Part shown: one piece after another, positions 31,612 to 58,413 of the stretch | How positions within the stretch are numbered: position 1 is the stretch's first letter | Layout: the number at the start of each line of letters is the position of its first letter | DNA from: Candidatus Saccharimonadales bacterium | Lineage (GTDB): Bacteria > Patescibacteriota > Saccharimonadia > Saccharimonadales > Saccharimonadaceae | Assembly (NCBI GenBank): GCA_035704495.1 | Contig: DASSWW010000038.1 | Coordinates: forward strand, 24,389-88,388 | Direction of reading: 5' to 3' | Length of the DNA: 64,000 nucleotides | Notes under the pieces: generated by a model | Told to the model about the DNA's origin: nothing | What the model saw: only the letters and a program-made list of their open reading frames with translations | Databases searched by the model: none | Made by a program: the position numbers and the translations under genes

Positions 31612-32187
31612 ATGCTTACTATGCAAAAAACAAAAAGTGGATTTACTATTGTCGAACTATTGATTGTTATTGTGGTGATCGGCATTTTGGCAGCTATTAC
31701 AATTGTGACGTATAGCGGAGTGCAGGATCGAGCTGTCGACACCCGTATGCGCGTTGCTGCTAATAAGGTTGAAAAGGCGCTTCGGCTTTGGCATATTGAT
31801 ACAGGCGAATCGCCACAAGGCGGCTGGGCGTCGACGCTACCCATCAGTGGTAATAATTGCCCTGACGGCGACGTGGTGAATGGGTGGGTAGCAACAGATA
31901 CCTATCCGTGCACACTGGAGGATATTTTGGTGGCTGGCGATTATTTGTCAGAAGATTTTATAGGTGGGCTACCTAGTAATACCTATCAACACACCAGTAC
32001 CCAATCTGGCCGTTATTCGATGATGTTTTATCCGTGTAACGAAACCGATGAATTCGCCTTGTACTGGACGCTGCGAGCACCTAGTGTCGAAGACGGTACG
32101 CAGTTGCAAGCGGTGTTGGATGACGGCTGTCCAACTGCCCCCGAAACCACGCATGGCATGCGTGGCGCAAAGATTATCCAACTGTAA
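31612..32187 (+). CDS. Type IV pilin-like protein (prepilin N-terminal cleavage/methylation domain)
   Basis: MQKTKSG/FTIVELLIVIVVIGILAAI, with the prepilin peptidase site G|F and Glu5. Confidence 0.85.
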   Translation: MLTMQKTKSGFTIVELLIVIVVIGILAAITIVTYSGVQDRAVDTRMRVAANKVEKALRLWHIDTGESPQGGWASTLPISGNNCPDGDVVNGWVATDTYPCTLEDILVAGDYLSEDFIGGLPSNTYQHTSTQSGRYSMMFYPCNETDEFALYWTLRAPSVEDGTQLQAVLDDGCPTAPETTHGMRGAKIIQL

Positions 32188-35872: not shown

Positions 35873-36622
35873 TTGGAAAATCTATTGAATATTGCACTCA
35901 GTTCGCTCGAGTGGATAACGGACATGGAGTTGTTTGTTTACATTCCATGGCTTGCTGCTGTTGGCTTGGCAGTTGTCGCCGCTGTGATGCAGCGGAACTT
36001 TCGTACACCACTTTTGGTCGGCACAATTATCTACACGGCGACTAACTTTTTGGTGTTTCTGTATGTCTTTTTGCAGCCTAATCGTTCAGTCGACGACAAT
36101 CGCTGGCTAGAAGGCGCAAAGGTAATAAAAGCACCAAAAATGCCAGAAGTACCTGCTGCGCCAGATTTGAGCGGTATACCGCTTGCTGGTGATACACTGT
36201 CGGAATCTCTGAATGGTTTTAGTGATTCCATGAATGACATTGGCAACACCTTTAATCAGACAAGTGCGTCTGTTACAGCAAATGCTAATCTCTTCAGCGC
36301 GTATCAACATACGTTCGGTCTGTCTAGTGAGTTTCTTCTTTATACGATGTACGGAGTAGGCGCTACACTAGTGGCGTTAATGATTTACATTGTTGCTCAA
36401 TGGTGGCAAAAACGGGCTGAAAAGAAGGCACTTTACGATGTAGTCGCAGAACTACGCAACTTCAAAGCGTATTCAGTTGGTCGTGACATGGCAGGTCATG
36501 CTGCTGAAGGCTGGCCATATAGCGAAAGCTTTGACTTCACTGTCGAAAATGGCTATAGCGGATACGATGCAGTTATGAGACAAGCGCAACAGTCTAATAA
36601 CCAGTATCAGTACGCTGAGTAA
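35873..36622 (+). CDS. Hypothetical membrane protein
   Basis: 249 aa ORF with three or four TM helices. GGGAGGA lies just upstream of the TTG/ATG start region. Confidence 0.6.
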   Translation: MENLLNIALSSLEWITDMELFVYIPWLAAVGLAVVAAVMQRNFRTPLLVGTIIYTATNFLVFLYVFLQPNRSVDDNRWLEGAKVIKAPKMPEVPAAPDLSGIPLAGDTLSESLNGFSDSMNDIGNTFNQTSASVTANANLFSAYQHTFGLSSEFLLYTMYGVGATLVALMIYIVAQWWQKRAEKKALYDVVAELRNFKAYSVGRDMAGHAAEGWPYSESFDFTVENGYSGYDAVMRQAQQSNNQYQYAE

Positions 36623-36665
36623 TCGACGCGCATGCACAATTCTAGATTTAATCCACTATAACCGT

Positions 36666-36721
36666 AGTAGGGTCCACCGGGACCTACTGACGCTCATTCG
36701 AGCGCCAGTAGGTCCCTTTTT
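36666..36721 (+). terminator. Three-arm element: alternative hairpins ending in a terminator (ggacctact...agtaggtcc + CTTTTT)
   Basis: Arm 2 (36680-36688) can pair with arm 1 (36666-36675) or with arm 3 (36707-36715). Only the arm 2/arm 3 pairing is followed by a T-tract. Confidence 0.55.
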
Positions 36722-36763
36722 ACTCGTATAAATACTATTATGCTTTGACATTTATCTTTACGA

Positions 36764-37579
36764 ATGCTTATATATCAGAATATGCTTGAAATAATTGATT
36801 CTGGGGTAGCACAGATAAACAAGCGCGAAAAAGCGGCTCGACTTAACAAGGCCTATTACCCAGACCAACCCACAGGCCAAGATGCCTGGGTGGCGGACAA
36901 AGATAACGGTGTTTTTGCTGTTGCTGACGGCGTGGCGCAGTCGCCAGATGCTGATAAAGCAGCACAGGCAGCCTGCCATGAGTTTCTGACGCGACTAACA
37001 GGCAGTGATCGACCGCAAACTGCCGAACAAGCAAAAGATCTAATCAAGCACCACGATCTGCTCGGTCATCTACATAGAGCAGCGTTGCAAGCGGATGCGA
37101 TGACTACATTTACTGGCATGGTAGTAACACCTGACGACATGATGACGTATGTGCATGTTGGTGATTCGCGACTTTATTTGCGCCGCGGTGACCAAATCGA
37201 AGCACTGACCAGTGAACAAGTTATCGATAATAAATATCGCAATATGCTTTATAACTACCTAGGTTATGATAAGTATTATGATAGAATTCGATCGATTAAT
37301 TTGACGCCGCAACCAAACACCATGGCTGGCTATCCGCTAGCTCAGGCAGAATGGGGAACGCGGCAATTGCAAGCAAATGATCGATTTTTGCTGGTAACCG
37401 ATGGTGTTACGGGTGATTTGGACGCAGACCGACTGAGTGACGAAACATTACTGTTGCATACTTCTTTAAAGTTGGGCGCGGCCGCAGCAGCCTACGCACT
37501 GGTTGATCGTTCGACTAAAATTGATGATACAACGGCCGTCGTTTTTGATATTGGTACATCTGGAAAAACCTCTGTATAA
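36764..37579 (+). CDS. PP2C-family Ser/Thr protein phosphatase
   Basis: FAVADGV, MTTFTGMVV, VHVGDSRLYL, LLVTDGV and DDTTAVVFDI match PP2C motifs. The start may instead be the ATG at 36782. Confidence 0.8.
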   Translation: MLIYQNMLEIIDSGVAQINKREKAARLNKAYYPDQPTGQDAWVADKDNGVFAVADGVAQSPDADKAAQAACHEFLTRLTGSDRPQTAEQAKDLIKHHDLLGHLHRAALQADAMTTFTGMVVTPDDMMTYVHVGDSRLYLRRGDQIEALTSEQVIDNKYRNMLYNYLGYDKYYDRIRSINLTPQPNTMAGYPLAQAEWGTRQLQANDRFLLVTDGVTGDLDADRLSDETLLLHTSLKLGAAAAAYALVDRSTKIDDTTAVVFDIGTSGKTSV

Positions 37580-37749: not shown

Positions 37750-40700
37750 ATGGCAAAATCCAAGCCTGACGTGGCTAAGCGCGTGTTTTTTACAAAAGAA
37801 GATACGGCTTTACCAATACCAAATCTAATCGCTCACCAAAAAGATTCTTGGCGTGAATTCGTCGAGACTGGTTTGAGCGAAATTTTTGCAGAACTTAATC
37901 CGATAGAGGATTACACTGGTCAAAAGTTAGAACTGCGTTTCAAAGAATATGCGTTCCAAGAACCAAAAACCAGTGAGCAAGACGCCAAAGAAAACAACTT
38001 GACATTTGACGCGCCGCTGCACGCCAACGTCGAATTGACCAACAAAGTCACTGGCGAAGTCAAAGAACAAGAAATCTACCTAGGTGATTATCCATGGATG
38101 ACCGACCGCGGTACATTTGTGATTAACGGTACGGAACGTGTTGTCGTTTCACAGCTTATCCGATCTGCTGGTGTATTCTTTACTGCTGACAATACCGTCG
38201 GCCGTCACAATTACGGTGCCAAACTGATTCCTGGCCGTGGTGCATGGTTAGAATTTGAAACCGCAGCAAACGGAACGATCTATGTCAAAATCGACCGCCG
38301 CCGTAAACTACCAATTACGACATTGCTACGCGCACTTGGTCATAACAAAACATCCGAAATTAAAAGTCTGTTTGCCGATGTTGACACCGGCGATGTGAAA
38401 TACATCGATGCGACACTCGAAAAAGATCCAGCTCGTGGTGCCAACGAAGCATTAATCGAAGTCTACCGCCGCCTGCGACCAGGTGACTTGGCGACTGTCG
38501 ATAACGCTCGTAGCATGATTGAACGTATGTTCTTTGACTTTAAACGATTCGACTATAGTCGTGTCGGCCGCTACAAATTAAACCAACGCCTAGGACTGGA
38601 AGTGCCAAACACGACCGAAAACCGTGTTTTCCAGATGAGTGACTTGATTGCCATTATCAAGGAAATTATTCGCTTGAATAATACTCAGGATCCTGCCGAC
38701 GATATTGACGCATTGTCTAATCGCCGCGTCAAATTAGTTGGTGAATTGGTTGCCCGCCAGTTCCGCGTTGGTATGCTTCGCATGCAACGTAACGCTATGG
38801 ACCGCATGAGTATGAGTGATTTGGAAACAGTGACCCCTGGTCAGTTGATTAATGCTCGTCCAGTTGTTGCCGCTGTCCGCGAATTCTTTGCCAGCTCACA
38901 GCTGTCACAGTTGATGGACGAAGTAAATCCGCTATCAGAACTATCACACAAACGCCGCCTAAGTAGCATGGGTCCTGGTGGACTTTCACGCGAACGCGCC
39001 GGCTTTGACGTTCGTGACGCTCACCCAACGCATTATGGCCGTCTGAGCGCCGTCGAAACACCAGAAGGTGCCAACATTGGACTGGTACTTAACCTGGCAA
39101 CGTATGCTCGCGTTAATGAATACGGTTTTATTGAAACACCATATCGAAAAGTTGTTAACGGTAAAGTCACTGACAAAATTGAATTCCTCGATGCTGCTCA
39201 GGAACTTGACGAAGTGATTGCCGATGCTGGTGCACCATTAAATAACGACGGCAGTTTTGCTGTCGAACGTGTCAGTGCTCGTAACAGCCTGAATCCAGAA
39301 CAAGTTGACGCTAGTGAAGTGACCTACATGGACGCTGCCTACAAACAGATTCTTGGTCCACCAGATAGCTTGATTCCATTCATCGAGAAAAACCGTGTCG
39401 ACCGTTCACTGACAGGTACAAACATGCAGAAGCAGGCTGTACCACTTTTGACACCAGAATCTCCTACTGTTGGAACTGGTATCGAAACAGAAGTTGCCAA
39501 AAACACTAGCCAATTAGTCTGCGCTGAAGCTGCTGGCGAAGTGGTTCGTGCTGATGCCGACGAAGTACATGTTAAATACAAAGACGGTGTCAAAATTTAC
39601 GAAGTGATTCACTTTGCAAAATCAAATGACGACCGCTCAATTAACCAAAAAGTGTGTGTAACTCGTGGTCAAAAAGTTTCTGCTGGTGACGCGCTAATCC
39701 AGGGTGCGTCAGTCGCTGATAGCGAAATCGCACTCGGTCGTGACCTAACTGTGGCCTTTATGCCATGGGGCGGTTACAACATGGACGACGCTATCGTACT
39801 TTCAGACCGTATCGTAAAAGACGACGCATTGACCAGTATTAACATCAAAGATTACACCGTTGAAGTTCGCGAAACCAAACTTGGTCCAGAAATCGTCACT
39901 CGTGACATTCCAAACGTTTCCGAAGATTCACTTCGTCACCTAGACGAAAACGGTATCGTTCAAGTTGGTTCAGAGGTAAAAGCTGGCGATGTACTTGTTG
40001 GTAAAATTACGCCAAAGGGCGAGCAAGAGCTCAGTTCAGAAGAACGACTACTCCGCGCTATCTTTGGTGAAAAAGCCAAAGACGTTCGCGACACATCACA
40101 ACGTATGAACAACGCTGGTGGTGGTAAAGTTGTCGGTGTTAAAATCTTTAGCCGCGAAAACGGCCACGAATTAAAAGCTGGCGTATTGATGCAGATTCAA
40201 ATCTTCGTTGCACAACTACGCAAAATTAGCGTTGGTGACAAGTTAGCTGGTCGTCACGGTAACAAGGGTGTTGTAGCGCGTATTTTGCCTGTTGAAGATA
40301 TGCCATTCATGGAAGACGGCACACCTGTTGACGTCATTCTCAACCCACTTGGTGTCCCAAGCCGTATGAATATCGGACAGTTGTTCGAAACTCACCTAGG
40401 TATGGCTGCACGCGCACTTGGCTACAAAGTAGCAACCCCACCATTTAACGGCGTAAGTGACGCAATCATCAGCGACGAGCTAGAAAAAGCTGGCTATGCC
40501 CGCGATGGTAAATCACAGCTATTTGACGGCCGAACTGGTGATGCATTTGAAGAACGTACTACTGTTGGTGTCATGCACATCATCAAACTGCACCACATGG
40601 TTAGTGACAAAATCCACGCTCGTTCAACCGGACCGTACACAATGGTCACGCAGCAACCACTTGGTGGTAAAGCGCAAAACGGTGGTCAGCGATTCGGAGA

Positions 40701-41106
40701 GATGGAAGTCTGGGCACTTGAAGCTTACGGCGCAGCAACAACCTTGCAGGAAATGCTGACAATCAAATCGGACGATGTCTATGGTCGTGCCAAGGCCTAC
40801 GAATCAATCATCAAAAACGAAGCGATTGTTGGTCCAAAACTGCCAGAATCGTTCAACGTGTTGGTGAAAGAATTGCAAGGACTTGGTCTGCGTGTTGATT
40901 TGCTTGATGAAAGCGAAGACGCCGTTATCGATGCCGAACAAATCATTGCTACCAGTGGCCCTGCCGATAAAACGGTACCAGCTGAATTTGTTGCTGATGA
41001 TAATCCTGAAACAGTCCTGGACGAAGCCGATGAACTTGGTGACATGGAAGACGGTGTAAGTATTCAAGATATTGATGAAATAGAAGAAATAAAGGAGGAG
41101 GCGTAA
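37750..41106 (+). CDS. rpoB: DNA-directed RNA polymerase subunit beta
   Basis: 1118 aa with the Rif-cluster region SQLSQLMDEVNPLSELSHKRRLS..GPGGLSRERAGFDVRD and the catalytic-region GRHGNKGV. Confidence 0.97.
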   Translation: MAKSKPDVAKRVFFTKEDTALPIPNLIAHQKDSWREFVETGLSEIFAELNPIEDYTGQKLELRFKEYAFQEPKTSEQDAKENNLTFDAPLHANVELTNKVTGEVKEQEIYLGDYPWMTDRGTFVINGTERVVVSQLIRSAGVFFTADNTVGRHNYGAKLIPGRGAWLEFETAANGTIYVKIDRRRKLPITTLLRALGHNKTSEIKSLFADVDTGDVKYIDATLEKDPARGANEALIEVYRRLRPGDLATVDNARSMIERMFFDFKRFDYSRVGRYKLNQRLGLEVPNTTENRVFQMSDLIAIIKEIIRLNNTQDPADDIDALSNRRVKLVGELVARQFRVGMLRMQRNAMDRMSMSDLETVTPGQLINARPVVAAVREFFASSQLSQLMDEVNPLSELSHKRRLSSMGPGGLSRERAGFDVRDAHPTHYGRLSAVETPEGANIGLVLNLATYARVNEYGFIETPYRKVVNGKVTDKIEFLDAAQELDEVIADAGAPLNNDGSFAVERVSARNSLNPEQVDASEVTYMDAAYKQILGPPDSLIPFIEKNRVDRSLTGTNMQKQAVPLLTPESPTVGTGIETEVAKNTSQLVCAEAAGEVVRADADEVHVKYKDGVKIYEVIHFAKSNDDRSINQKVCVTRGQKVSAGDALIQGASVADSEIALGRDLTVAFMPWGGYNMDDAIVLSDRIVKDDALTSINIKDYTVEVRETKLGPEIVTRDIPNVSEDSLRHLDENGIVQVGSEVKAGDVLVGKITPKGEQELSSEERLLRAIFGEKAKDVRDTSQRMNNAGGGKVVGVKIFSRENGHELKAGVLMQIQIFVAQLRKISVGDKLAGRHGNKGVVARILPVEDMPFMEDGTPVDVILNPLGVPSRMNIGQLFETHLGMAARALGYKVATPPFNGVSDAIISDELEKAGYARDGKSQLFDGRTGDAFEERTTVGVMHIIKLHHMVSDKIHARSTGPYTMVTQQPLGGKAQNGGQRFGEMEVWALEAYGAATTLQEMLTIKSDDVYGRAKAYESIIKNEAIVGPKLPESFNVLVKELQGLGLRVDLLDESEDAVIDAEQIIATSGPADKTVPAEFVADDNPETVLDEADELGDMEDGVSIQDIDEIEEIKEEA

Positions 41107-41107: not shown

Positions 41108-44100
41108 ATGAGTCGTATTCTCGCTAATAACGGTATTGCTGACTTTGATGCAGTCCGCCTGGCAGTTGCTAGCCCTGATGACATTATGAAATGGAGTCAC
41201 GGTGAAGTTACAAAACCAGAAACGATTAACTATCGTACACAAAAACCAGAACGTGATGGTTTGTTCTGTGAACGTATTTTCGGGCCAGTCAAAGACATCA
41301 ACCCGCACGATAACAAACTAAAGGGCGTCCGATCACGCGAGGCAGCAATCGATAAAAACGGTGAACTTGTCACCAAATCTATCGTTCGCCGCGAACGCAT
41401 GGCGCATATCAGCCTAGCAGCACCAGTAGCACACATTTGGTTTATGCGCGGCACCCCAAGTGCGATGTCACTACTGCTTGGTATTACTGTTCGCAACCTA
41501 GAACGTATCGCTTATTTTGCAACCTATGTTGTATTAGATGTTGATGTAGAAAAGCGTGATCAGATGCTCGCTGACCTAGAAGCCGAAACCGAAGCTGCCC
41601 GTATGGCAATTAAGCTACGCTTTGAAAAAGAAGCGGAAGTTGAAAACGCTGACGTTAAACAGCTAGCTGAACAACAATCACGCGAAATCGAAGAACTAGA
41701 AGAAAACTACACTACCAAAAAAACTCAGCTAGACAGCTTGGTCAAAAATGCGCTCATTAGCGAAACTGACTATCGTAACCTTCCCGAAGAATACGAAGAG
41801 CTCGTCAAAGTAGGCATGGGTGGTACGGCAATGAAAGCACTTCTCGACGAGATCGACCTGCCACAACTGATTGCTGAACTGACCGAAGAAGTCGAAAGTG
41901 CCAAAGGACAGCGCGAAAAGAAGCTGTTGAAGCGTCTGAAGGTGCTAGAAGCAATGCATGCTGCTGGCATCAAACCAAACAGCCTGACACTCACTGTCCT
42001 ACCGGTGATTCCACCGGACCTTCGTCCAATGGTGCAATTGACCGGTGGTCGTTTTGCGACGTCAGATTTGAACGATCTGTATCGCCGTGTCATTAACCGT
42101 AACAACCGTCTGAAAAAACTGATGGATCTTAACGCTCCTGAAGTCATCTGCCGTAACGAAATGCGCATGCTACAAGAAGCCGTCGATGCACTGATTGATA
42201 ACAGCGCTGCCCGTGGTGGTCGTGCCGTTAATGCGACTGGTGGCCGCCGCCGACTCAAATCTATTAGCGACATGCTAAAGGGTAAACAAGGTCGTTTCCG
42301 TCAGAACTTGCTAGGTAAACGTGTCGACTATTCCGCTCGTTCCGTGATTGTGGTTGGTCCAAAGCTAAAGATTCACCAGTGTGGATTGCCAAAACAAATG
42401 GCCCTCGAACTGTTTAAGCCATTCGTCATTAGCTGGTTGATTCGTGGTGAACACGCACACAATATCCGTTCAGCAACTCGTTTGATCGAAGCTGGCGACA
42501 CATTGGTATGGGATGCGCTGGATTCAGTCATCGAAGGCAAATACGTCCTACTAAACCGTGCTCCATCACTTCACCGTCTATCTATCCAAGCGTTTCAGCC
42601 AAAACTAGTCGAAGGCAAAGCAATCCAGCTGCATCCACTGGTTGCAAACGGATTTAACGCCGACTACGATGGTGACCAGATGGCTGTTCACTTGCCGCTA
42701 TCAGACGACGCGCAGCGTGAAGCTCGCGAACTGATGAGTGCAACGAACAACCTGCTAAAACCAGCTGACGGTGCGCCGGTTCTGAACATTGGTCAGGACG
42801 TTGTACTTGGTAACTATTACTTAACGTACGAAAAACCAAGTGCTCAAACTGATGATGTCAAAGCCTACAGTTCTGTCTATGAAGCCGAAATGGCCTATGA
42901 TAACCACAAATTGCAGCTGCAAAGCCCGATTCGTGTCTATGCAAAGGGTGAAATCCGCAATACGACGCTTGGCCGAGTATTCTTTAACGAAATTCTGCCA
43001 GCTGACTATCCGTACGACAATTCGGTTCAGAACAAAAAGCAGTTGAAAAAAGTATTGGCAAAAATCTTTACCAAGTATGGTGCCGAAGAAACAGCCAAAA
43101 CAGCTGACAAAATGAAGGGACTTGCTTTCCGATTTGCAACGATTGCCGCTGTATCGACCGGTAAAGACGACTACATTCAGTTTGATGAAATTGGTGAGTT
43201 TGTGGCCGAAGGTGACGCCAAAACGACATTGATTTCGGAACAGTTTGACCAAGGTCTTGTTACCGAGGACGAACGATATACGCTGACTGTTGCTGCATGG
43301 CGTAGTGTTGACCGTAAAGTAACCGAATTCTTGCAGGACAAGTTGAAAGACATGGATACAAGTATCAGTGTCATGGTCAACTCTGGTGCCCGTGGTGATA
43401 TTAGTAACGTCAAGCTTGCTAGCGCGATGGTTGGTATCATGGTGGACGCCAGCAACAAAGAAATTGAGTTGCCGATTCGCTCTAACTACAAAGACGGGCT
43501 TAGTTCACTTGAACAATTTGTGGCTACTCGTGGTGCACGTAAGGGTCTGATCGACACCGCTCTAAAGACCGCTGACTCGGGTTATCTGACTCGTCGTCTG
43601 GTTGATGTGTCGCAAGACGTCTTTACAGTGGAAGATTCTGCTGGTGACGATGATGGTTTTGCTATCAACCGTAGCGAATCTGAACTGACGATGATCGACT
43701 TTGGTAACCGTTTGGCTGGTCGTTTTACCGCCGAAGAAGTACCTGGTCATGTTGGCAAGGACGAGCTGATTACGCGAGAAATTGCTGACAGTATCGAAGC
43801 TGACAGCAAGATTGAAAGTGTCAAAATCCAATCAGTACTTTCTACCAAGAACCTACGCGGTATTCCACAGCGAAGCTACGGCCTAGATATGGCGACTGGC
43901 GCTTTGGTCGCCAAAGCACAGCCAGTCGGCGTTATCGCCGCCCAGTCTGTCGGTGAACCTGGTACACAGCTGACGCTGAAAACCTTCCACGCCGGTGGTG
44001 TGGCTGGTGGTGACATCACCCAGGGTCTGCCACGTGTTGAAGAGTTGTTCGAAGCACGCTCTCCAAAAGGTCAAGCAAATATGACAGAAGTCGCTGGTAC

Positions 44101-44938
44101 GGTTGATGTTTGGGAAGATGGCAAAAAGTATGTTGTCCAAGTCACCCCTGAAGCTGGCCATGTTGAACGTATCGCCCTCGAAGGTCGTACGGTAACAGTC
44201 AAAGCTGGCAGTAATGTCAAAGTTGGCGATGTACTGGCAACCGCCGAAAGCGAAAGCAAGCCACTTGTCGCACCATTTGATGGTGTCGTCGAGATAGCCG
44301 GAAAGACACTTGTACTGGCCGCTAACGCTGGTGCGCCAGTTCGTTACGAAATCCCAGGCAGTACACAATTAGTCGTTCGTGCGGGTGATGCCGTCGAAGC
44401 GGGTGATCGCCTGACAATTGGTTCATTGAACTTGCACGACTTGATGCGTCTAAAGGGTACCGAAGCGACGCAACGTTATATCATTAACGAAGTATTGCGC
44501 ATTTACGCTGCACAGGGTCAAGACGTTGCTGACAAGCACCTCGAGATCATCGTGCGACAAATGTTCAGCCGTGTTCAAATCGAAGATCCAGGCGATAGTG
44601 CATTTGTCACCGGCGACATTGTGTCAAAAGCATCTGTTGTCGAAGCAAACGCCGAACTGGCTGCCGAAGGCAAAGACTTGGTTGGTTACACGCAACTGTT
44701 GCTTGGTATCACCAAGGTGTCTATCTGGAGTGATAGCTGGCTATCTGCTGCATCGTTCCAAGATACGACTCGTGTGCTGATTAACGCAGCCGTCAGTGGT
44801 CGTGCCGACCGACTGCATGGTCTAAAAGAAAACGTTATCATTGGCCGCAAGATTCCTGTCGGAACTGGTGTCATTAATAACGAACAAGAAGACGATATCG
44901 CTCAAGATATCGCCGAAGACCTAGAACTGTCTGCTTAG
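41108..44938 (+). CDS. rpoC: DNA-directed RNA polymerase subunit beta-prime (both canonical Zn sites lack Cys)
   Basis: 1276 aa with the NADYDGDQM active site, the RRERM.HI.LA.P.AHIWF clamp region, and bridge-helix and trigger-loop regions. Confidence 0.97.
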
Positions 44939-45212: not shown

Positions 45213-45629
45213 ATGCCAACAATCAATCAATTGGTGCGTAAACCACGTACGACGGCGAATAAAAAGTCGAAGTCGCCAGCGCTTGGCCGCATCCACAACG
45301 CACTAAAAACGCGTTATTATGATCAAAACGCTCCACTAAAACGTGGCGTTTGTATCAAAGTAACAACCAAAACGCCTAAAAAGCCAAACTCAGCCCTACG
45401 TAAAGTAGCGCGTGTTCGTTTGACTAATGGCCAAGAAGTTTGGGCTTATATCGGTGGTGAAGGTCACAACCTACAAGAACACGCCGTTGTGCTGGTTCGT
45501 GGTGGTCGTGTTCCTGACCTTCCAGGTGTTCGTTATCACATCGTCCGTGGTGCACTTGACCTGCAAGGCGTTGCAAAACGCCAGCAAGGCCGTTCTAAAT
45601 ACGGTGCAAAGAAGGAGGATAAGAAGTAA
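45213..45629 (+). CDS. rpsL: 30S ribosomal protein S12
   Basis: [20 protein letters not shown] and [10 protein letters not shown]. The otherwise universal RVKDLPGVRY reads [10 protein letters not shown] here. Confidence 0.97.
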
Positions 45630-46108
45630 TGCCACGTAAAGTAACCAAAAGCCTGCAGCGTGTCTTGACACCAGACCGCAAATACCAGTCGGTACTTGTA
45701 CAGCGCTTGATTAACAAATCAATCCTTGATGGCAAAAAATCTATCGCAGAAAAAGCCGTTTATACCGCACTAGAAGTCGCTGCCAAAAAGCTTGATAGCG
45801 AAGATCCACTGGCTGTATTTGAAAAAGCATTGAAAAACGTCGCCCCTAACTTCGAAGTAAAATCTCGTCGTGTCGGTGGTGCAAACTATCAGATTCCTTT
45901 CCCAGTTTCGGGCCACCGTCAGCTGCACTACGCGTTTAGCTGGTTGGTGCAGTCTGCACGTGCTCGCAATGGTATTCCATATTCTCAGCGTTTGGCGCTC
46001 GAGATTATCGATGCTCACAACGAAGCTGGTGCTGCGTTCAAAAAGAAAGAAGATACTCACAAAATGGCCGAAGCCAACCGTGCTTTCGCTCACTTTGCTC
46101 GTACATAA
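45629..46108 (+). CDS. rpsG: 30S ribosomal protein S7
   Basis: The ATG overlaps the rpsL stop (TAATG). VKSRRVGGANYQIP and AFAHFAR are present. Confidence 0.97.
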   Translation: MPRKVTKSLQRVLTPDRKYQSVLVQRLINKSILDGKKSIAEKAVYTALEVAAKKLDSEDPLAVFEKALKNVAPNFEVKSRRVGGANYQIPFPVSGHRQLHYAFSWLVQSARARNGIPYSQRLALEIIDAHNEAGAAFKKKEDTHKMAEANRAFAHFART

Positions 46109-46127
46109 GTTCAGCTAGTCTGATACT

Positions 46128-46163
46128 AAATACATCCTCGTTTATTGCGAGGATGTATTATTA
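46128..46163 (+). terminator. Rho-independent terminator directly after rpsG
   Basis: tacatcctcg-tttattg-cgaggatgta followed by ttatt. Confidence 0.75.
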
Positions 46164-46208
46164 TGGTATGATAGGTAAATAATACGACGTGTCGGTAAAG
46201 GAGTAACG

Positions 46209-46805
46209 ATGTCTGAAAAATTATTATCTGGTGCGTGTGACGACTGTCCGCTGCGAAAAAAGATTAATTGTGACGCAGCCGAACGGATAACAACACGAGC
46301 CGCTAGAGCCTCTGACGGCACGGACATAATGGGTTATCCTATTGGACCTGTGAGTCTATCTTTAAGTTATGAGTTTTGTGATAATCCAAATGATGAAAAT
46401 GCTCCTCGATATGAAATTAAAGCTAACAATGCCGAGAAATACTTAGCAGCGGCTGACGAAGTGGAACAAGCACTGCAATCGGATCCGAAATTTGATATGC
46501 CAAAACGCAGACTGGGCGATATCGACGCGTCGATACGACACATGTCGGCCGTACGTATATTACAAGATGCTCGTCATAATAGTTTGAAATCATCGATTGC
46601 CGACGAATTTACACAATGTGAAGCACCAGTAGAGGATGAGACGTCGTGGTTCCGTCGCAAAAAATGTGGTGCCGATGTCGTAGGGAGAGTATTACCGCGT
46701 TCGGAGATGGTTAAACGAAACGAAGAAGCGGAATTAATGCGCAAGTATGGCACAACGGGGTTTGTGGCCGTAAGTAAATTACAAAAATTCAAACCAATTC
46801 GTTAA
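46209..46805 (+). CDS. Hypothetical Cys-containing protein (island A)
   Basis: 198 aa ORF behind AAAGGAG. N-terminal CDDCP...C. No recognised family. Confidence 0.6.
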   Translation: MSEKLLSGACDDCPLRKKINCDAAERITTRAARASDGTDIMGYPIGPVSLSLSYEFCDNPNDENAPRYEIKANNAEKYLAAADEVEQALQSDPKFDMPKRRLGDIDASIRHMSAVRILQDARHNSLKSSIADEFTQCEAPVEDETSWFRRKKCGADVVGRVLPRSEMVKRNEEAELMRKYGTTGFVAVSKLQKFKPIR

Positions 46806-46882
46806 ACTCATCATTCTTGCGCAATAGTTGATTACCAATGCACTAATCGTAATTTATGCGCCAACTGCATCAGATCGGTTCT

Positions 46883-47719
46883 TCATGTAAAATTAGTGCT
46901 ATCTGGATCGGCGCCAATTCGTTCGCCAGTATCAAGGGTGGCGATTTGCGCCATATCATCAGCGTCTAGGGTAAAGTCAAACACGTCGAAGTTTTGTTCG
47001 ATGCGTTCTGCGTGCACGGATTTTGGAATAACAATCGACCCGTTTTCAATGTGCCAGCGGATGATAATCTGCGCGGCACTTTTACCGTGTTTGTGTCCGA
47101 TATCGATAATCTTTTGGTTTGTCAACAAGCCGCCAGTGCTGCCACCTAACGGACTCCATGATTCGACAGCAATATCGTGTTGATTACACAATAAACGCGT
47201 GCCATGTTGCGGAAATTGCGGATGGAGTTCGATTTGGTTAACTGCTGGGGGAATGACAGCATGGTCTAGTAAATCCTCTAAATGATGTGGTTTAAAATTG
47301 CTGACACCAATAGATCGAGCTAGTCCGTCATTAAATATTTTTTCGAACGCGCGCCACGTATCATTGTATTTATTTGCCGCTGGCGCTGGCCAGTGAATCA
47401 GGTATAGATCGATATAATCAAGCTGTAATCTTTCCAAACTTTTCGCAAACGCCTGCAACGTCTTGTCGTATCCCTGATCAGCGTTCCATAGTTTGGTCGT
47501 CACAAATATTTCGTCTCGTGGAATGCCGCTGGCTTTGATTGCTCGGCCGACGCCTTTTTCGTTGCCGTACACGGCAGCTGTATCAATCATCCGATAGCCT
47601 GCTTTTAAAGCCGCGCTGACCGCTGCTTCAACTTCTTTGCCATCTTTGGCCTGCCAGACGCCCAATCCGACCTGTGGTATTGTAATGCCATTGTTAAGTG
47701 TAATATGTGGTTGTGTCAT
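46883..47719 (-). CDS. Aldo/keto reductase (2,5-diketo-D-gluconate reductase-like)
   Basis: LGVWQ, GYRMIDTAAVYGNE, FVTTKLWN, LDYIDLYLIHWP and IPKS are the AKR signature. Confidence 0.9.
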   Translation of the reverse strand: MTQPHITLNNGITIPQVGLGVWQAKDGKEVEAAVSAALKAGYRMIDTAAVYGNEKGVGRAIKASGIPRDEIFVTTKLWNADQGYDKTLQAFAKSLERLQLDYIDLYLIHWPAPAANKYNDTWRAFEKIFNDGLARSIGVSNFKPHHLEDLLDHAVIPPAVNQIELHPQFPQHGTRLLCNQHDIAVESWSPLGGSTGGLLTNQKIIDIGHKHGKSAAQIIIRWHIENGSIVIPKSVHAERIEQNFDVFDFTLDADDMAQIATLDTGERIGADPDSTNFT

Positions 47720-47798
47720 GCGTCCTCCAATCTGTCTGGCTGCAATAGTAGCAGTAAATATATGGAGCGGCAGTAAGATACCTTACTGAGAGCCAATT

Positions 47799-48419
47799 CT
47801 AGATAACACAGCGGTCAACGTAAATAATAAATTGAGTGCGGCTATAGTCGATACAACCCTGGGCACGCAGCTTTTGCAGTTCGACTGATGTTGTTTCGCG
47901 GGTGGAACTAATCATTTCGGCCAAATCTTTATGAGTAAGCTGTAGGCCTAATTTGTATAAATCAACTGTAGTATCAGCGCTAAAACGCTTGGCAAGGTAG
48001 GACAGAGTGGCGATTAATTTGTCACGCACACTGGCTTGTTCGGCAGAATTAATTCTTGATAATAAATCATCATAATGGCTACTCATGCTAGTCGCGATTT
48101 CGGTCATCAATCCCAAATCGGTTTTGGCAGCTGCTAAAAAATCATCTTTACGGATTTGATAGACGGTCCCACTGGATAGCGCAGTATAAAAAAACTGTAG
48201 TGGTTGATGGCGCGAAAAAAGTCGTTCTGTCGGTACAATATCATAACGCCCGGCAATCCATAACATTCGTTCGTTTCCTGCTTCGTCGACGGACGTTACT
48301 TTTACATAGCCGTTTTGAATCGCTAGCAAAACATCAGAAACATCGCCCTCGCTGAGGATAACTTCGCCTTTGGTGAAGTTTTTGATGGGAAAGTTTTTGA
48401 CAAATCTGGTGACATCCAT
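47799..48419 (-). CDS. Crp/Fnr family transcriptional regulator
   Basis: N-terminal cNMP-binding barrel (GEVILSEGD....L.I..G.VKV) and a C-terminal HTH (LTHKDLAEMISSTRETTSVELQKL). Confidence 0.85.
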   Translation of the reverse strand: MDVTRFVKNFPIKNFTKGEVILSEGDVSDVLLAIQNGYVKVTSVDEAGNERMLWIAGRYDIVPTERLFSRHQPLQFFYTALSSGTVYQIRKDDFLAAAKTDLGLMTEIATSMSSHYDDLLSRINSAEQASVRDKLIATLSYLAKRFSADTTVDLYKLGLQLTHKDLAEMISSTRETTSVELQKLRAQGCIDYSRTQFIIYVDRCVI

Positions 48420-48512
48420 ATTCTAATATTATAGCGTTTTTGTATGATTTCTTACAACGGCGCAAATCGAAATACGATATCATACCTCTAACGTAATAAA
48501 AGGAGGACAATT

Positions 48513-48899
48513 ATGTCATTACGATTTATACCAACAAAAGTACACGGAGCGCTCGATTATATCGTTGCTATCGCGTTAATATTTGCACCAATGATTTTCG
48601 GTTTTCAAGAAGTCGGTGGCGCTGCAGTTTATATTCCAATAATTCTAGGTGTCGGTCTGTTCTTGTATAGCTTGCTGACTAACTATGAATGGGGTCTAAT
48701 CAAGGTAATTGGTATGCCATACCACTTGGTTATCGATATTCTTGCGTCAACATTGCTAGTCTTGTCACCGTTTTTGTTCGGATTCATCGACGAAGCACCA
48801 AACGCATGGTTGCCACACATCGCCGTCGGTGTCACTGTTATTTTGGTTGTTCTATTTTCACAGACACAACCTGCAGTTGATAAAAATACCGTCGCTTAA
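48513..48899 (+). CDS. Small four-TM membrane protein (SPW-repeat-like)
   Basis: AAGGAGGA RBS. Repeated ..FAPMIFGF / LSPFLFGF helices. Confidence 0.6.
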   Translation: MSLRFIPTKVHGALDYIVAIALIFAPMIFGFQEVGGAAVYIPIILGVGLFLYSLLTNYEWGLIKVIGMPYHLVIDILASTLLVLSPFLFGFIDEAPNAWLPHIAVGVTVILVVLFSQTQPAVDKNTVA

Positions 48900-48928
48900 A
48901 TCCGCATAGGTACACAACACTATTCAGC

Positions 48929-48959
48929 AAAATATCCCGCTCACCACGCGGGATATTTT
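48929..48959 (+). terminator. Rho-independent terminator
   Basis: aaaatatcccgc-tcaccac-gcgggatatttt. Confidence 0.85.
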
Positions 48960-48997
48960 GATGGATTACGCTGCCCGTAATCGGTAATACGAGGCTT

Positions 48998-49987
48998 ATG
49001 CTTGAGTTAACGTCGCAATTACTATTTAATATATACATGGAACACCCAACAAGTGCCGACTTATCGTTTTTAGATCGCTTAGAATCCGTAACGACAGATC
49101 CGATGGTGGATAAAGTATTCGCTACTGCGCGTGAATACGAAGAAATGATTAATTCTACTGGCAGCGTTACAGCCGAAGACAGGATTGCACTAATCGCAGA
49201 ATTAAACGATACGTGGCCTTTTATGGGTATGAAGCTGCAGGTCTCGGGCCGTTTGTCATTTGCTGACACTGAATCGGGTGAGGTTAAGGCCAAATATTAT
49301 GACGACAGGCCGATGATATCAAATGGTTTCTGTTTTATCGAAGACCATATTATGTCAGACGAAGAAGTAGTCGCCGAACACTACAAAGTTGGTTTGCATA
49401 TGATTCGATTTGCCGACGAGACATCTAACGAAGGCGAGCTTGGTGTGGGGCTACTTGACGATGTTGCAATTGATTACCCCGTACATTCACCCGAAATGAT
49501 TGAAAATCGATTACGATATTTTCATTCAGAAACGATGGAAAGGCTAGATACAATCGTCTTAAACTGCGAGACCGAAGAACAAGCGGTCATGCAGTTAAAA
49601 GATTTTACTATCGATGCCATACCATCTGATACGGAGAGTATGCAGGTGGCGAGTGATCTGCAAGTTTACCTGTCATCAATACTTGAATTTGATGATCGAC
49701 TACCGTACAACATCACTATAGCGGGCGATTGTTTTGCTGAGGTGGATGGTGTGGTTTGCGCAGCAAAAATTGAAGAAATTATGTCCGGTGTTGCAGGGGT
49801 TGCTGGTGTAAAATTTTTGCAACAAGCCGAGCTACCATCAGACCAAGAACAATGTTTGATGGTCTGTATAGAAATATATTGGTTCACTGCAGATAAAAAA
49901 GCACCTCCTTTGCATCTTTACCTACCATCGAAAAGCATCCAAGACATTACATCTGTCCGCAGGATTACCTACGAAGAAGAGGACTGA
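48998..49987 (+). CDS. Hypothetical acidic protein, paralog family P (copy 1)
   Basis: Aligns by eye with the 51131-52069 product (LI.EL...W.YM....VSG.L; YP..SP...E.RL.Y.H; .FD..LPY). The start may be the ATG at 49037. Confidence 0.6.
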   Translation: MLELTSQLLFNIYMEHPTSADLSFLDRLESVTTDPMVDKVFATAREYEEMINSTGSVTAEDRIALIAELNDTWPFMGMKLQVSGRLSFADTESGEVKAKYYDDRPMISNGFCFIEDHIMSDEEVVAEHYKVGLHMIRFADETSNEGELGVGLLDDVAIDYPVHSPEMIENRLRYFHSETMERLDTIVLNCETEEQAVMQLKDFTIDAIPSDTESMQVASDLQVYLSSILEFDDRLPYNITIAGDCFAEVDGVVCAAKIEEIMSGVAGVAGVKFLQQAELPSDQEQCLMVCIEIYWFTADKKAPPLHLYLPSKSIQDITSVRRITYEEED

Positions 49988-50015
49988 GCGTCGACCGCTA
50001 TTACGGTTTGTCGTT

Positions 50016-50044
50016 TTGTGATAAATGGTTAAATATGGCATAAT
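50016..50044 (+). promoter_or_regulatory. Putative promoter of the 50071 gene
   Basis: TTGTGA, 17 nt, CATAAT. AGGGGAGG RBS downstream. Confidence 0.5.
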
Positions 50045-50070
50045 TCTAAGTGAATTAGGGGAGGAATTGG

Positions 50071-51114
50071 ATGACTGAGCAACTAGGTGAGCCGACGGAA
50101 CCGATACAAAACATCGTGGCAGAACGCTTTGGTGCAGAAAAGCAAGCCAGAGAGAGTGTCGCTTGTGTCATGGGGCTAGGGAGGCTTTTGTCGCAAAAAG
50201 AGTTTGAATCGCTCGCAGATGCACGGCAGAACGTTGCCGAGTATATAAAGCAGTTTCACCAAGAAATGGGCAAGGTACCAAATATACAATCAGTTTTAAT
50301 GCAGGCAAGTGGTGGTGATGTTTCCGTTGCAAACCCACACTACACTATCGATTCAACGTCTGGCGCGATAACAATTCAATTTAATAACGATCCGCCGGTC
50401 GTCTCACCGCCGCTGCTTAGTTCTCGACTTTTTAGACTTTCTGGTCCTTTTGTGCCGTATCACCAGCGTGATGATGGTAGTGTCGTGGTAAAACCTACCT
50501 TGGTGGGTGACGATCTAGAACGAAAGTCGTGGGGTATTAATCCTGTATCCGGTTTGCCGATGACAACGGTTCATATGACCTCGAAAATTATGATTCCCTG
50601 TGACAGCGATGATGCACACATAGAAATTATCGAACTAGAAAATGAAGAAAAGCGCATACGGGCCGTCGAAGAGTTGGCCGCGTACGTATCTGAAGAAACA
50701 GGTTTGGTTGATGACGTCAACGAAATGAATCAGGCCTTGTACAAATCCGATACTGAACGCATGCGCCACAAGAATTTACCAGACATTGATTTACTGCGAT
50801 CATTAGGCAGAAAAGGTATAGAATATATCCAACAAGGCTCAAAGGCTGCCGATGCATTGAACACGGCCATCGCTGCAACTATTGGTAAGCGGCCGTTGAT
50901 GATTGACGGTAAAGCCTACGAAACAAACGGCGGCGGCGCACTTACCGAAAGTCACGTAGCGGGTTACGAAGGTCGCGTCATGGATGTCGTTTCTGAAATA
51001 CCTATGTCCGACGAATACATCGGCCCAACGCTCGCGATGACGTCACGCAGTGCCAAAGACCCTAACCGCATTTCATATTTGCCGTTGACTGATGTCACCG
51101 CATTACAGTTTTAA
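50071..51114 (+). CDS. Hypothetical protein (flanked by the two family-P paralogs)
   Basis: 347 aa ORF with a strong RBS and no recognised domain. Confidence 0.6.
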   Translation: MTEQLGEPTEPIQNIVAERFGAEKQARESVACVMGLGRLLSQKEFESLADARQNVAEYIKQFHQEMGKVPNIQSVLMQASGGDVSVANPHYTIDSTSGAITIQFNNDPPVVSPPLLSSRLFRLSGPFVPYHQRDDGSVVVKPTLVGDDLERKSWGINPVSGLPMTTVHMTSKIMIPCDSDDAHIEIIELENEEKRIRAVEELAAYVSEETGLVDDVNEMNQALYKSDTERMRHKNLPDIDLLRSLGRKGIEYIQQGSKAADALNTAIAATIGKRPLMIDGKAYETNGGGALTESHVAGYEGRVMDVVSEIPMSDEYIGPTLAMTSRSAKDPNRISYLPLTDVTALQF

Positions 51115-51130
51115 ATAATGGAGTATCGTC

Positions 51131-52069
51131 GTGGATAAAGAAGATTTACATCAATCGCTAGAGGGCCGAACGGTGGATTTTGACGCGCTTGATCATCTGG
51201 AAGGTCTGACGCGCAATGACTACATGAACACCGTGTTCCAAAGAGTTAAAGAGGCGGAGCAGACACTCAACCAAGAAACGACGACGACCAACCAACAAGC
51301 TAAGCTGATTCAACAACTCGATGAAAGTTGGTGGTACATGGATCAAGAAATTCCCGTATCTGGAACACTACATGTAAAAACTGGCCATCTGACACCAGAA
51401 CTACCTGAATATACCCTAGTGCCTGTTGACGAGATAGAACTAGAAAGCAAAGGTTTTATTATATTAACGTTCGGCGCAACAATAGATGATGAGTCGATAG
51501 TATACCGCCGCATGGCGCTATGCTTTAAGCAAGACGACACCCTTGTAGCAATGTTGCCAGAAGACATCATTAACACTTTTCCTGATTATTCGCCTGACAT
51601 TTCAGAAAGACGATTGCTCTATCATCACAAAGACGAAGTGCTACGGATTACCGATCGTGTCGAATCGTCAGATATTGCAGCCAGGACACCGCTGGTAATG
51701 AATTTTACCGATTATGCGGTTGATATCTTGATGCATGCCAAATATGACGATGAATACAAAAGCGATCTAGAAAATTATTTATTTAAAGCGATGGATTTTG
51801 ATAACGAATTGCCGTACGTTGTAAGTTGCGCTCTGACCGAAGATGATTTCGATGATAATAGAACGCTCCAGTTCATTGCGCAACCTGATGCCATTACCCT
51901 TGTACCACTTATCAATAATCAACAGACGGATGGCCCTCAGCGACACATTCCACGGTTGGAATTATCAGTATTTGCCGATAACCCCAAAGATCCAAATATT
52001 AACGTGAGCGTACCACTACATACATTACGCCAGGTGACACCAGTGCGGCAAATGGGCAATAAACAGTAG
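51131..52069 (+). CDS. Hypothetical acidic protein, paralog family P (copy 2)
   Basis: GTG start behind TGGAG. Similar to the 48998-49987 product. Confidence 0.6.
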   Translation: MDKEDLHQSLEGRTVDFDALDHLEGLTRNDYMNTVFQRVKEAEQTLNQETTTTNQQAKLIQQLDESWWYMDQEIPVSGTLHVKTGHLTPELPEYTLVPVDEIELESKGFIILTFGATIDDESIVYRRMALCFKQDDTLVAMLPEDIINTFPDYSPDISERRLLYHHKDEVLRITDRVESSDIAARTPLVMNFTDYAVDILMHAKYDDEYKSDLENYLFKAMDFDNELPYVVSCALTEDDFDDNRTLQFIAQPDAITLVPLINNQQTDGPQRHIPRLELSVFADNPKDPNINVSVPLHTLRQVTPVRQMGNKQ

Positions 52070-52168
52070 TAATACTAGCAATATCCATTGATTTTTGTTA
52101 AAATAAGTATCAAGCGCTATTTTTGATGGCAAAAATTATATAACTCACAAAGGAAGAGCACACACGCT

Positions 52169-54262
52169 ATGGCAGAAAAAACCGTCCCCCTAAAGGACTT
52201 TCGTAATATTGGTATTATCGCGCATATTGATGCAGGTAAAACCACAACCACCGAAGGTATTTTGTACCGAACCGGCATTAATCACAAAATCGGTGAAGTC
52301 CGTGGTGACGGCGACGGCGCGACGACCGACTGGATGGCGCAGGAAAAAGAGCGTGGTATCACGATTACTTCTGCTGCCGTTACGTGTTTCTGGAAGGGTC
52401 ACAAGATTAACATCATCGATACCCCAGGTCACATCGACTTTACCGCCGAAGTCGAACGTTCACTGCGTGTGCTTGACGGTGCGGTAACTGTTTTTGATGG
52501 CAAGATGGGCGTTGAAGCCCAGTCTGAAACTGTATGGCGCCAGGCCAACAAATACGGTGTACCTCGCATTTGTTTTATTAACAAAATCAATCAAACCGGT
52601 GGTGATTTTTACAAATCTCTTCAGAGTATTCATACTCGTCTTTCTAAAAATGCTCTTCCTGTCCATCTGCCAATTGGATTTGAAAAAGACATCAACGGTG
52701 TTGTTGATTTGGTCGAGATGAAGGCCTATACCTACGGTGATTACACCGACAAGCAACTTGTTGAAGGCGAAATTCCTGCTGATATGCTTGATAAAGCAAA
52801 GAACGCTCGTAGCCTTTTGGTTGAAGCAGCCGTCGAAGCCGATGACGAATTGTTCGAACGCTTCCTTGAAAAGGGTGAAGAATCAATCACTACCGATGAA
52901 CTAAAAGCCGCGCTTCGCAAACGTGTCCTCGCTGGTGACTTTTATCTTGTCAGTGGTGGTGATGGCCGTGGCGTCATCGTTGAAAAACTTCTCGACTTGA
53001 TGACCGAATTCCTGCCAAGCCCACTCGATGTTGATGCTATTTGGGGTAGCAATCCAAAAACTGGCGACGAAGTCTCGCGCAAACCAGACGAAAAAGAGCC
53101 TATGGCAGCACTAGCATTTAAACTTGCAACAGACCCATTTGTCGGTAAGCTAATTTTTGTTCGTGTTTATTCAGGTAAATTGACCGCTGGTAGTTACGTT
53201 CTAAACACTACAACTGGTGAAAAAGAACGCGTCGGCCGTATCGTCCGTATGCACGCCGACAAGCGTGAAGAGATCGACTCTGTTAGCGCTGGCGACATCG
53301 CGGCAGTTGTAGGCCTAAAGGGTACCTTTACTGGTCACACGCTTACCGATCCTACGCATCCAATTGCGCTTGAATCAATTACTTTCCCAGATCCTCCGGT
53401 ATCGATTGCGGTTGAGCCAAAGACAAAAGCCGATCAAGAAAAAATGGGTATCGCATTGCAACGCCTGGCCGAAGAAGACCCGACTTTCCGTGTCCACACC
53501 GACGACGAAACAGGTCAGACAATCATGTCAGGTATGGGTGAATTGCACCTTGATATTTTGATCGATCGTATGAAACGTGAGTTTAACGTCGAAGCGAACA
53601 TTGGTGAGCCACAAGTTGCTTTCCGTGAATCAATCAAAGGCACATCAGAAGTCCAGGGTAAGCACGCCAAACAATCTGGTGGTCGCGGTCAGTATGGTGA
53701 TGTATGGATTCGCTTTGAAGCTAACGAAGCTGGCAAAGGTTTTGAGTTTCTTGACGCAATCAAGGGTGGTGTTGTGCCACAGGAATACCGCAAACCTGTC
53801 GAACAAGGCGTTCGTGAAACATTAGATGGTGGTGTTATCGCTGGTTATCCAGTTGTTGATGTTAAAGCGACACTCTACGACGGTAGCTACCACGATGTTG
53901 ACTCAAGCGAACTAGCCTTTAAGTTGGCCGGATCACTGGCGACACGTGAAGGTATCAAGCAAGCCAAACCAATTCTGCTAGAACCTGTTATGAAAGTTGA
54001 AGTAACCACACCAGAAGATTTCATGGGTGATATCATTGGCGACCTTAACTCTCGCCGTGGCCGTATTGACGCAATGGAAGATCTGATGGGCGGCGCCAAA
54101 TTGATCAAAGCTTTTGTACCACTGGCCAGTATGTTTGGTTACACCGGCGATATTCGTTCGATGAGTCAGGGCCGTGCTGCCAGCACAATGGAACTTGCCA
54201 ACTACGAAGAAGTTCCACCGAACGTTGCACAGGAAATCATCGAGAAGCGCGCCAGCAAATAG
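52169..54262 (+). CDS. fusA: Elongation factor G (atypical G4 motif NKIN)
   Basis: [19 protein letters not shown] and the domain IV YHDVDSS. AAGGAAG RBS. Confidence 0.96.
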
Positions 54263-54281
54263 TAGTGTAATCGTTGAAAAT

Positions 54282-54313
54282 AAAATCACCGTCAGAGATG
54301 GCGGTGATTTTAT
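54282..54313 (+). terminator. Rho-independent terminator after fusA
   Basis: aaaatcaccg-tcagagatgg-cggtgatttt followed by at. Confidence 0.85.
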
Positions 54314-54388
54314 ATTGTCTAAAAAATCCAATAGTGGTATTGTATCGCAATAGAAGATGCGTTGCATAAGAAGCAGGGGGAAGCAAAA

Positions 54389-55672: not shown

Positions 55673-55719
55673 CAACAAAAGTCGCGCTAGCAAATAAGAA
55701 TAGTGCATCGAAGCTATGC

Positions 55720-55747
55720 TTGCAGTGTACGATAACGAGGCTATAAT
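55720..55747 (+). promoter_or_regulatory. Promoter with -10 9 nt before the ATG of the 55757 gene
   Basis: TTGCAG, 16 nt, TATAAT, then aacgatactATG. No SD. Confidence 0.55.
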
Positions 55748-55756
55748 AACGATACT

Positions 55757-56389: not shown

Positions 56390-56424
56390 TACAAGCACCA
56401 CCGTCGTTACCGTGATGTCTATGC

Positions 56425-56453
56425 TTGCAACATCGCTACAATAACGTTATACC
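56425..56453 (+). promoter_or_regulatory. Promoter with -10 6 nt before the ATG of the 56460 gene (leaderless)
   Basis: TTGCAA, 17 nt, TATACC, then agaaatATG. This is the same -10-to-ATG module seen at clpP. Confidence 0.6.
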
Positions 56454-56459
56454 AGAAAT

Positions 56460-57113: not shown

Positions 57114-57120
57114 TTACTCT

Positions 57121-57148
57121 TTACGAACACTTATAAACACTGTATAAT
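57121..57148 (+). promoter_or_regulatory. Putative tuf promoter
   Basis: TTACGA, 16 nt, TATAAT. AGGAGAA RBS before the ATG at 57212. Confidence 0.55.
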
Positions 57149-58396: not shown

Positions 58397-58413
58397 TTAG
58401 TCTCCTAATTATC

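Follow-up and report, generated by a model that had tools for sequence, protein, structure and literature searches.

RNA polymerase has been viewed as a zinc enzyme for decades. The canonical bacterial β′ subunit carries two structural Zn(Cys)4 sites: one in the N-terminal zinc-binding domain (ZBD), which in Escherichia coli affects termination, antitermination and how well promoters with a weak −35 element are used, and a second (site II), which in E. coli is needed for the folding and assembly of β′. The N-terminal ZBD is said to be common to all multisubunit RNA polymerases in a structural paper of 2024 (PMC7618050). Among ribosomal proteins, zinc ribbons that have lost their cysteines (C− forms) arose repeatedly in evolution (PMC3087516, PMC6094098, PMC5912738). 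Here we describe the β′ gene, rpoC, in a 64-kb stretch of DNA (contig DASSWW010000038.1, positions 24,389 to 88,388; the whole stretch is referred to as the window) from Candidatus Saccharimonadales bacterium, the product of which has no Cys at any of the eight ligand positions. We put at roughly 80% the probability that both structural sites of β′ became metal-independent once, in the ancestor of Saccharibacteria, and were kept in that state by purifying selection. Saccharibacteria, on this sequence evidence, probably run a zinc-free RNA polymerase.

The window protein is an ortholog of canonical β′, with the same domain order, catalytic loop and ZBD length, and shares with it the flanking motifs FGP...VRRERMGHI.LA.PV.HIWF and LVDV.QD...GVIAAQS.GEPGTQL. 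All five Pfam Rpb1 domains (domains 1–5: PF04997, PF00623, PF04983, PF05000 and PF04998) are present in order, each above its cut-off; phmmer matches to solved β′ chains in the PDB reach E=0 and 1000–1160 bits, and the protein is an ordinary sequence, about 40–50% identical to the model enzymes. It is 100% identical to an NCBI entry under the name Candidatus Saccharimonadales bacterium, and its nearest genome loci are Saccharibacteria/TM7 assemblies throughout. The gene starts at 41108, after the end of rpoB at 41106, and stands in the standard gene order rpoB-rpoC-rpsL-rpsG. The features on which the argument draws are as follows.

41108..44938, + strand: rpoC, RNA polymerase β′ subunit, 1276 amino acids (aa), intact (open reading frame (ORF) listing, Pfam, solved-chain match)
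41279..41383, + strand: zinc-less equivalent of the N-terminal ZBD, residues 58–92 (gapless alignment to Cys4 ZBDs)
41303..41359, + strand: former ZBD ligand positions P66, D68, I81 and N84 (E. coli C70, C72, C85 and C88)
42656..42682, + strand: catalytic Mg-binding loop NADYDGDQM, residues 517–525 (from the sequence)
43640..43876, + strand: former second zinc site A845, T913, P920 and S923 (E. coli C814, C888, C895 and C898)
37750..41106, + strand: rpoB, β subunit, 1118 aa (ends 1 nucleotide before rpoC)

Read directly, the codons at the four former ZBD ligand positions are ccg for P66 (41303), gat for D68 (41309), atc for I81 (41348) and aac for N84 (41357), and those of site II begin at 43640 (A845), 43844 (T913), 43865 (P920) and 43874 (S923). 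Compared with canonical β′, Saccharibacteria have P, D, V/I and N, and A, T, P and S, in place of the eight Cys. The site II ligands of E. coli, which we take to be C814, C888, C895 and C898, agree with the 7- and 3-residue spacing in the window β′; the E. coli ZBD numbering (C70/C72/C85/C88) is given in a preprint on an endosymbiont RNA polymerase, which merely lists the Cys. The position, length and flanking motifs of a Cys4 ZBD are all present and its four Cys (CxC...CxxC) are absent, as are the four Cys of site II (C...Cx6CxxC).

These assignments do not depend on a single alignment method. With phmmer, residues 11–144 align without gaps to the solved β′ chains of C. thermocellum, C. difficile and B. 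subtilis; the ZBD segment of the window faces 'kdwechcgkykriryKgivcdrcgvevt' of the solved chains and, at site II, 'vedsag' faces 'etdcg' and the second piece faces 'tchseygvcakcyg'. With HHalign, a profile of 103 Saccharibacteria sequences was aligned to Cys-containing β′ segments from other lineages (136 for the ZBD and 130 for site II). The probability was 100 and all eight positions faced a consensus Cys with the top per-column confidence; across the ZBD the alignment is gapless over 121 columns, with 60% identity to the nearest Cys-containing sequence. This profile–profile comparison, which could have placed Cys or His ligands at the positions in question, put none there, and misalignment as the cause of the missing Cys is thereby ruled out. 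The original prediction, made from the letters of the window, that all eight ligand Cys are absent is thus exact in its residues and nucleotide positions by codon reading, phmmer and HHalign.

The window β′ has only three Cys (C54, C348 and C425), in agreement with the earlier count, and rpoB has only two (C591 and C636), both isolated. A Cx(1-4)C motif is found nowhere in any of 102 non-redundant Saccharibacteria β′ proteins. A compensating Cys cluster elsewhere in β′ or β is ruled out on these grounds and, because β′ has no Cx(1-4)C motif and rpoB only two isolated Cys, no new Cys-based site has arisen.

The loss extends across Saccharibacteria. Cys occupies no ZBD ligand position in any of 80 species-representative genome loci (70–90% identity, Nanosynbacter and TM7 oral taxon 348 included), all of which carry S923. 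The ZBD positions are equally free of Cys in all 242 Saccharibacteria-type proteins, down to 47% identity, where they read PDVN (142 proteins), PDIN (60), PDVK (19) or one of several rare variants. Site II in the 242 proteins has at most two Cys, with 'CCSS' in five of them and Cys at 913 only in about 35; these Cys at 845/913 look like remnants left as site II gradually decayed. Hundreds of independent assemblies, some with contigs of 0.95–1.25 Mb, show the same state, and all named Saccharibacteria β′ proteins retrieved are of the zinc-free type. Beyond the original prediction, the trait is ancestral to all Saccharibacteria and not peculiar to one genome.

Residues 1–1000 were searched against 1.84 billion cluster representatives, yielding more than 6,500 β′ clusters at E<1e-30, and ligand positions were mapped in the 150 nearest. 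Cys is absent from the ZBD positions in only the four nearest clusters (66–51% identity) and one fragment; from the fifth match on (50% identity), every sequence that covers the ZBD has four Cys there, and the few clusters that seem to deviate through local insertions still have four Cys in their segments. Outside the clade, the ZBD Cys4 is present in every ZBD-covering sequence of the 146 nearest 50%-identity clusters, and site II Cys are present at three or four positions in all but four of them. Because these neighbours keep the ZBD Cys4 and nearly all of the site II Cys, the ligand loss is not chance.

The nearest zinc-containing clusters belong to Candidatus Peribacteria, Parcubacteria/Paceibacterota and 'Patescibacteria group', and for the most divergent zinc-free cluster (P0124) the closest relatives that bear a name are all Saccharibacteria. 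Neighbour joining of 153 β′ sequences over 1053 well-aligned columns, by distance and without bootstrap, unites the 12 zinc-free tips, and no others, in a clade with a long stem (0.17). A Parcubacteria/Paceibacterota cluster stands next to this clade as its sister, and other Patescibacteria come after it, all of them CCCC/CCCC. A single loss at the base of Saccharibacteria would be the simplest account of this distribution.

Site II has been dispensable more than once, because four unrelated β′ clusters lack site II alone, with ASSD, DDSS, DHSA and EDTS at its positions (P0175, P0183, P0185 and P0214); loss of the ZBD ligands was seen only in the Saccharibacteria clade among the 150 nearest clusters. 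We sought a solved structure lacking site II among the PDB entries closest to P0175 and to P0185, and Cys were present in all of them. The solved relatives of P0185 are led by entry 6j9e, and these are presumably proteobacterial enzymes.

The replaced ZBD is more conserved than the protein on average. Mean column conservation is 0.907 for the segment (residues 58–92) and 0.758 for the whole protein, and the segment exceeds 85% of all 35-residue windows in β′. Among the 103 non-redundant sequences it contains zero insertions or deletions, N65, R77, A80, D82, G85 and V88 are invariant, and conservation is 90% or higher at P66, H67, D68, K72, G73, R75 and K83. Judged from the gapless alignment, the ZBD module is kept residue for residue. 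At the codon level, the 35 ZBD codons of the window differ from those of the 80 loci by a mean of 18.6 synonymous and 2.4 non-synonymous differences per species pair, a ratio of about 8 to 1, so that synonymous change is close to saturation and the peptide has stayed fixed. Conservation is lower in the two pieces of site II (0.70 and 0.745), the first of which belongs to a variable acidic loop. In the catalytic loop, N517, A518, D519, D521, G522, D523 and M525 are invariant in the same 103 sequences, and the loop otherwise varies only between Y and F.

The basic residues of the ZBD have also been kept. K70, K72, R75, R77 and K83 correspond to K74, K76, K79, R81 and K87 of E. coli, respectively, and are 99–100% K/R in the 103 sequences (100% for K70 and K83). 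In E. coli, K74 and K87 touch promoter-spacer DNA, an enzyme with all four ZBD Cys changed to Ser is active on lacUV5 and weaker on σ28 and weak −35 promoters, and the ZBD could not be deleted in vivo (bioRxiv 10.1101/2020.01.02.893370). The kept basic residues include those assumed to contact the exiting RNA. That the gene is not a pseudogene, as the original prediction held, is supported by the intact ORF, the catalytic loop, the same state in 242 homologues and the strong purifying selection on the replaced segment; its further suggestion of a remodelled ZBD also stands, in that the segment has not been deleted, retains its length and conserves its new residues. As an orthologue of a Cys4 protein with replaced ligands, a kept module and a signature of purifying selection, the window rpoC reads as a zinc-independent variant, one of a class defined by function rather than by sequence.

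The way in which the module might dispense with the metal is suggested by the two former knuckles. In the first, D-[WYF]-E-C-x-C-G-K has changed to D-I-N-P-H-D-x-K and, in the second, C-[ED]-[KR]-C-G-V-E-V has changed to V-D-K-N-G-E-L-V. Both Asn-Pro and Asn-Gly are pairs that classically form turns. We propose that the zinc knuckles ExCxC and CxxCG may have been converted into self-stabilizing turns, N65-P66-H67-D68 (Asx-Pro) and D82-K83-N84-G85 (an Asn-Gly hairpin), and that a hydrophobic pair of P66 with V/I81 and a polar pair of D68 with N/K84 could stand in for the tetrahedral metal centre. Position 84 alternates between N and K with D68 fixed, and a single lineage has S68/S84; this pattern fits the polar pair, as weak evidence. 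The ZBD module would then probably still form a wall of the RNA exit channel and contact upstream DNA, without zinc. At the former site II, A, T, P and S would lie inside a module that may still fold. The core enzyme as a whole would contain no zinc because α, β and ω carry none in known bacterial enzymes.

An AlphaFold2 model was built with the 103 non-redundant sequences (mean predicted local distance difference test (pLDDT) score 73.7), and from it we used the local confidence of the site II module and the hairpin at residues 79–89. Residues 841–930, the former site II module, have pLDDT values of 73–91, and strands 79–81 and 87–89 form a hairpin around DKNG.

The same protein has two insertions relative to Firmicutes β′. 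One of 66 residues (residues 145–210; 41540–41737) comes right after the ZBD region and is predicted to form a pair of long helices (pLDDT 76–91); actinobacterial β′ chains align through this stretch. The other (residues 1019–1078; 44162–44341) is about 60 residues long and rich in β-structure.

Loss of the thiols need not mean loss of the metal, and an alternative that we regard as unlikely is that the ZBD site has been remodelled around the new non-thiol ligands H67, D68 and D82, perhaps with N65 or E78. These residues lie at or beside the former ligand positions and are highly conserved (D68 98%, D82 100%, N65 100% and H67 90%). However, 7 of the 103 sequences have Phe and 3 have Asn in place of H67, which suits packing and not ligation. 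Zinc-containing relatives usually have H, Y or F between their first two Cys (CHC, CYC or CFC), so that H67 was inherited; being ancestral, and exchanged for Phe or Asn in some lineages, it is ruled out as a new ligand. Two of the four ZBD positions are occupied by Pro and Val/Ile, which cannot bind metal, N, K, R, S, A, E and Q all occur at position 84, and the former site II offers just Ala, Thr, Pro and Ser. It is still harder to believe that the segment is functionless and decaying, its exit-channel and DNA-contact roles dropped or passed to another factor. The low AlphaFold2 confidence of residues 51–100 would fit such decay, as would the activity on a strong promoter that the E. coli enzyme retains without the ZBD or its four Cys (bioRxiv 10.1101/2020.01.02.893370), but a decaying segment would not be expected to combine a conservation above that of 85% of windows, no indels in 103 sequences, an 8 to 1 synonymous to non-synonymous ratio and invariant basic contact residues. 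We give slightly less credence again to the possibility that the window gene is a non-essential or degenerate paralogue, with a canonical zinc-binding rpoC at work elsewhere in the genome, or else an assembly artefact. Our view of this genome is the 64-kb window, and a second copy could lie beyond it; the gene nevertheless occupies the standard rpoB-rpoC-rpsL-rpsG position, is intact with all catalytic motifs, recurs in the same state in the independent assemblies, and has only zinc-free counterparts among the named Saccharibacteria.

Metal-independent replacement of both sites in the ancestor of Saccharibacteria thus accounts best for the data, and several points weigh against it. Besides the conserved H67, D68 and D82 and the room for a second rpoC outside the window, the tree that places the loss is an unbootstrapped distance tree, and the clusters inspected are the 150 nearest of more than 6,500, a sample that does not establish uniqueness among bacteria. 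The AlphaFold2 model is weakest where it matters most: pLDDT is 50–63 for residues 51–100, the predicted template modelling score of the whole model is 0.40, and Foldseek superposes it on solved β′ with a template modelling score of 0.27 and a root-mean-square deviation of 34 Å, its domain arrangement being wrong. Because confidence is low both in the ZBD and globally, the proposed turns and pair contacts rest on sequence alone.

The surrounding genes indicate how specific the loss is. The genome is Cys-poor, because Cys makes up 0.55% of 58 window ORFs, 17 of which have none, and EF-Tu (394 aa; 57212–58396, + strand) lacks Cys altogether, its near-universal DCPGH and NKCD reading DMPGH and NKMD. 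The original prediction had noted these EF-Tu changes and the RLSAVETPEG of rpoB (at 431), all of which are confirmed, and took them as a hint of Cys avoidance in the core machinery. That hint is supported weakly: overall Cys content is low, and β′ has 2–7 non-ligand Cys per protein, similar to its zinc-keeping relatives in the Candidate Phyla Radiation (CPR). Because the non-ligand Cys count is like that of zinc-containing CPR β′, the loss in β′ is, by this comparison of sequences, specific to the ligands. Zinc still has uses in this genome, judging by the C4 finger of RadA (CxxC...CxxC at its N-terminus), the HExxH...E of PepN and the HxxEH of an M16 peptidase; the earlier statement that zinc sites have not been lost in general, which cited RadA, therefore holds.

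Possible causes include the saving of scarce Cys or zinc in an epibiont unable to make amino acids, protection from thiol oxidation, and drift followed by compensation. Odds only a little better than even attach, in our judgement, to the broader proposal that Saccharibacteria, a major and cultivable CPR lineage, have the first known zinc-free cellular multisubunit RNA polymerase, that its behaviour at the exit channel in termination, antitermination and promoter-spacer contacts is altered, and that this is an adaptation to Cys or zinc scarcity or to oxidative stress. A NusA gene lies within the window (9588–10808), and Rho, NusG and sigma were not identified among the scanned window ORFs of at least 90 aa.

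Other features of the window are recorded here in their own right. G+C content is 44–48% and even along the window. Minus-strand ORFs within rpoC (41770–42273, 43883–44368 and others) were rejected as mechanical by-products without support. Upstream of rpoB (35873–37579) lie genes for a membrane protein and a PP2C-type phosphatase, and not rplJ-rplL. Downstream, the rpsL-rpsG-fusA-tuf-rpsJ run (45213–61781) is broken three times: between rpsG and fusA (46209–52069) by six ORFs, encoding a Cys-rich unknown protein of 198 aa, an aldo-keto reductase, a Crp-like regulator, an SPW-repeat protein and two unknowns; between fusA and tuf (54362–57113) by the M16 peptidase and two unknown ORFs; and between tuf and rpsJ (58540–61312) by about 3 kb of small minus-strand ORFs, one with 5.8% Cys. 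An ORF at 56–985 (+ strand) fuses an RNase HII domain (residues 5–161) to a YraN-family domain (residues 196–302), which are normally encoded by two adjacent genes; its N-terminus may be mis-set. Two tRNA-Leu genes (TAG and CAG) on opposite strands (25527–27859) flank a gene for an FAD-linked oxidase (25816–27546). A sortase-family protein is encoded at 6288–6869 (− strand) and, at 31612–32187 (+ strand), a protein of 191 aa with a type IV pilin N-terminal methylation motif and 4 Cys.

We found no report of the trait in the literature on Saccharibacteria, Patescibacteria or TM7x with respect to RNA polymerase, rpoC, zinc or cysteine, in a search that covered few subscription journals, and RNA polymerase was not previously known to have a C− form. 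A lineage that lacks both sites and has kept their surroundings would imply that zinc serves as a scaffold that can be replaced, and that the mechanism does not require it. The trait may also help to explain how reduced epibionts cope with limited Cys or zinc, or with oxidants. Saccharibacteria sequences offer natural material for testing the contribution of zinc, and the idea is directly testable because cultivated strains such as Nanosynbacter share the trait. If our reading is right, the lineage offers a natural experiment for asking why zinc has persisted in all other RNA polymerases.

Among known systems, the closest parallel is provided by the zinc-free (C−) ribosomal proteins L31, L33, L36, S14, S18 and S4, in which the Cys4 site has been replaced and place and function have been kept, as we propose for β′. 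A ribosomal C− form is usually found beside a C+ paralogue and is turned on by Zur when zinc runs short, whereas the C− form of β′ appears to be the sole copy and fixed in the lineage; within the 64-kb window there is no second rpoC and no Zur. DksA2 is a zinc-independent variant of DksA. Natural variants of DksA, a component of the transcription machinery with a Cys4 zinc finger, keep their function with fewer Cys (two, for instance) or none (PMC4850274), but DksA is an accessory factor with paralogues and not a catalytic subunit. The four β′ clusters that have lost site II alone keep the ZBD Cys4 and fall outside the zinc-free clade in the tree. In the non-virion RNA polymerase of jumbo phage AR9, no N-terminal ZBD is observed (PMC7618050); there the element is missing altogether from a divergent viral enzyme, whereas the β′ of Saccharibacteria belongs to a cellular enzyme in which the element has been kept without its ligands.

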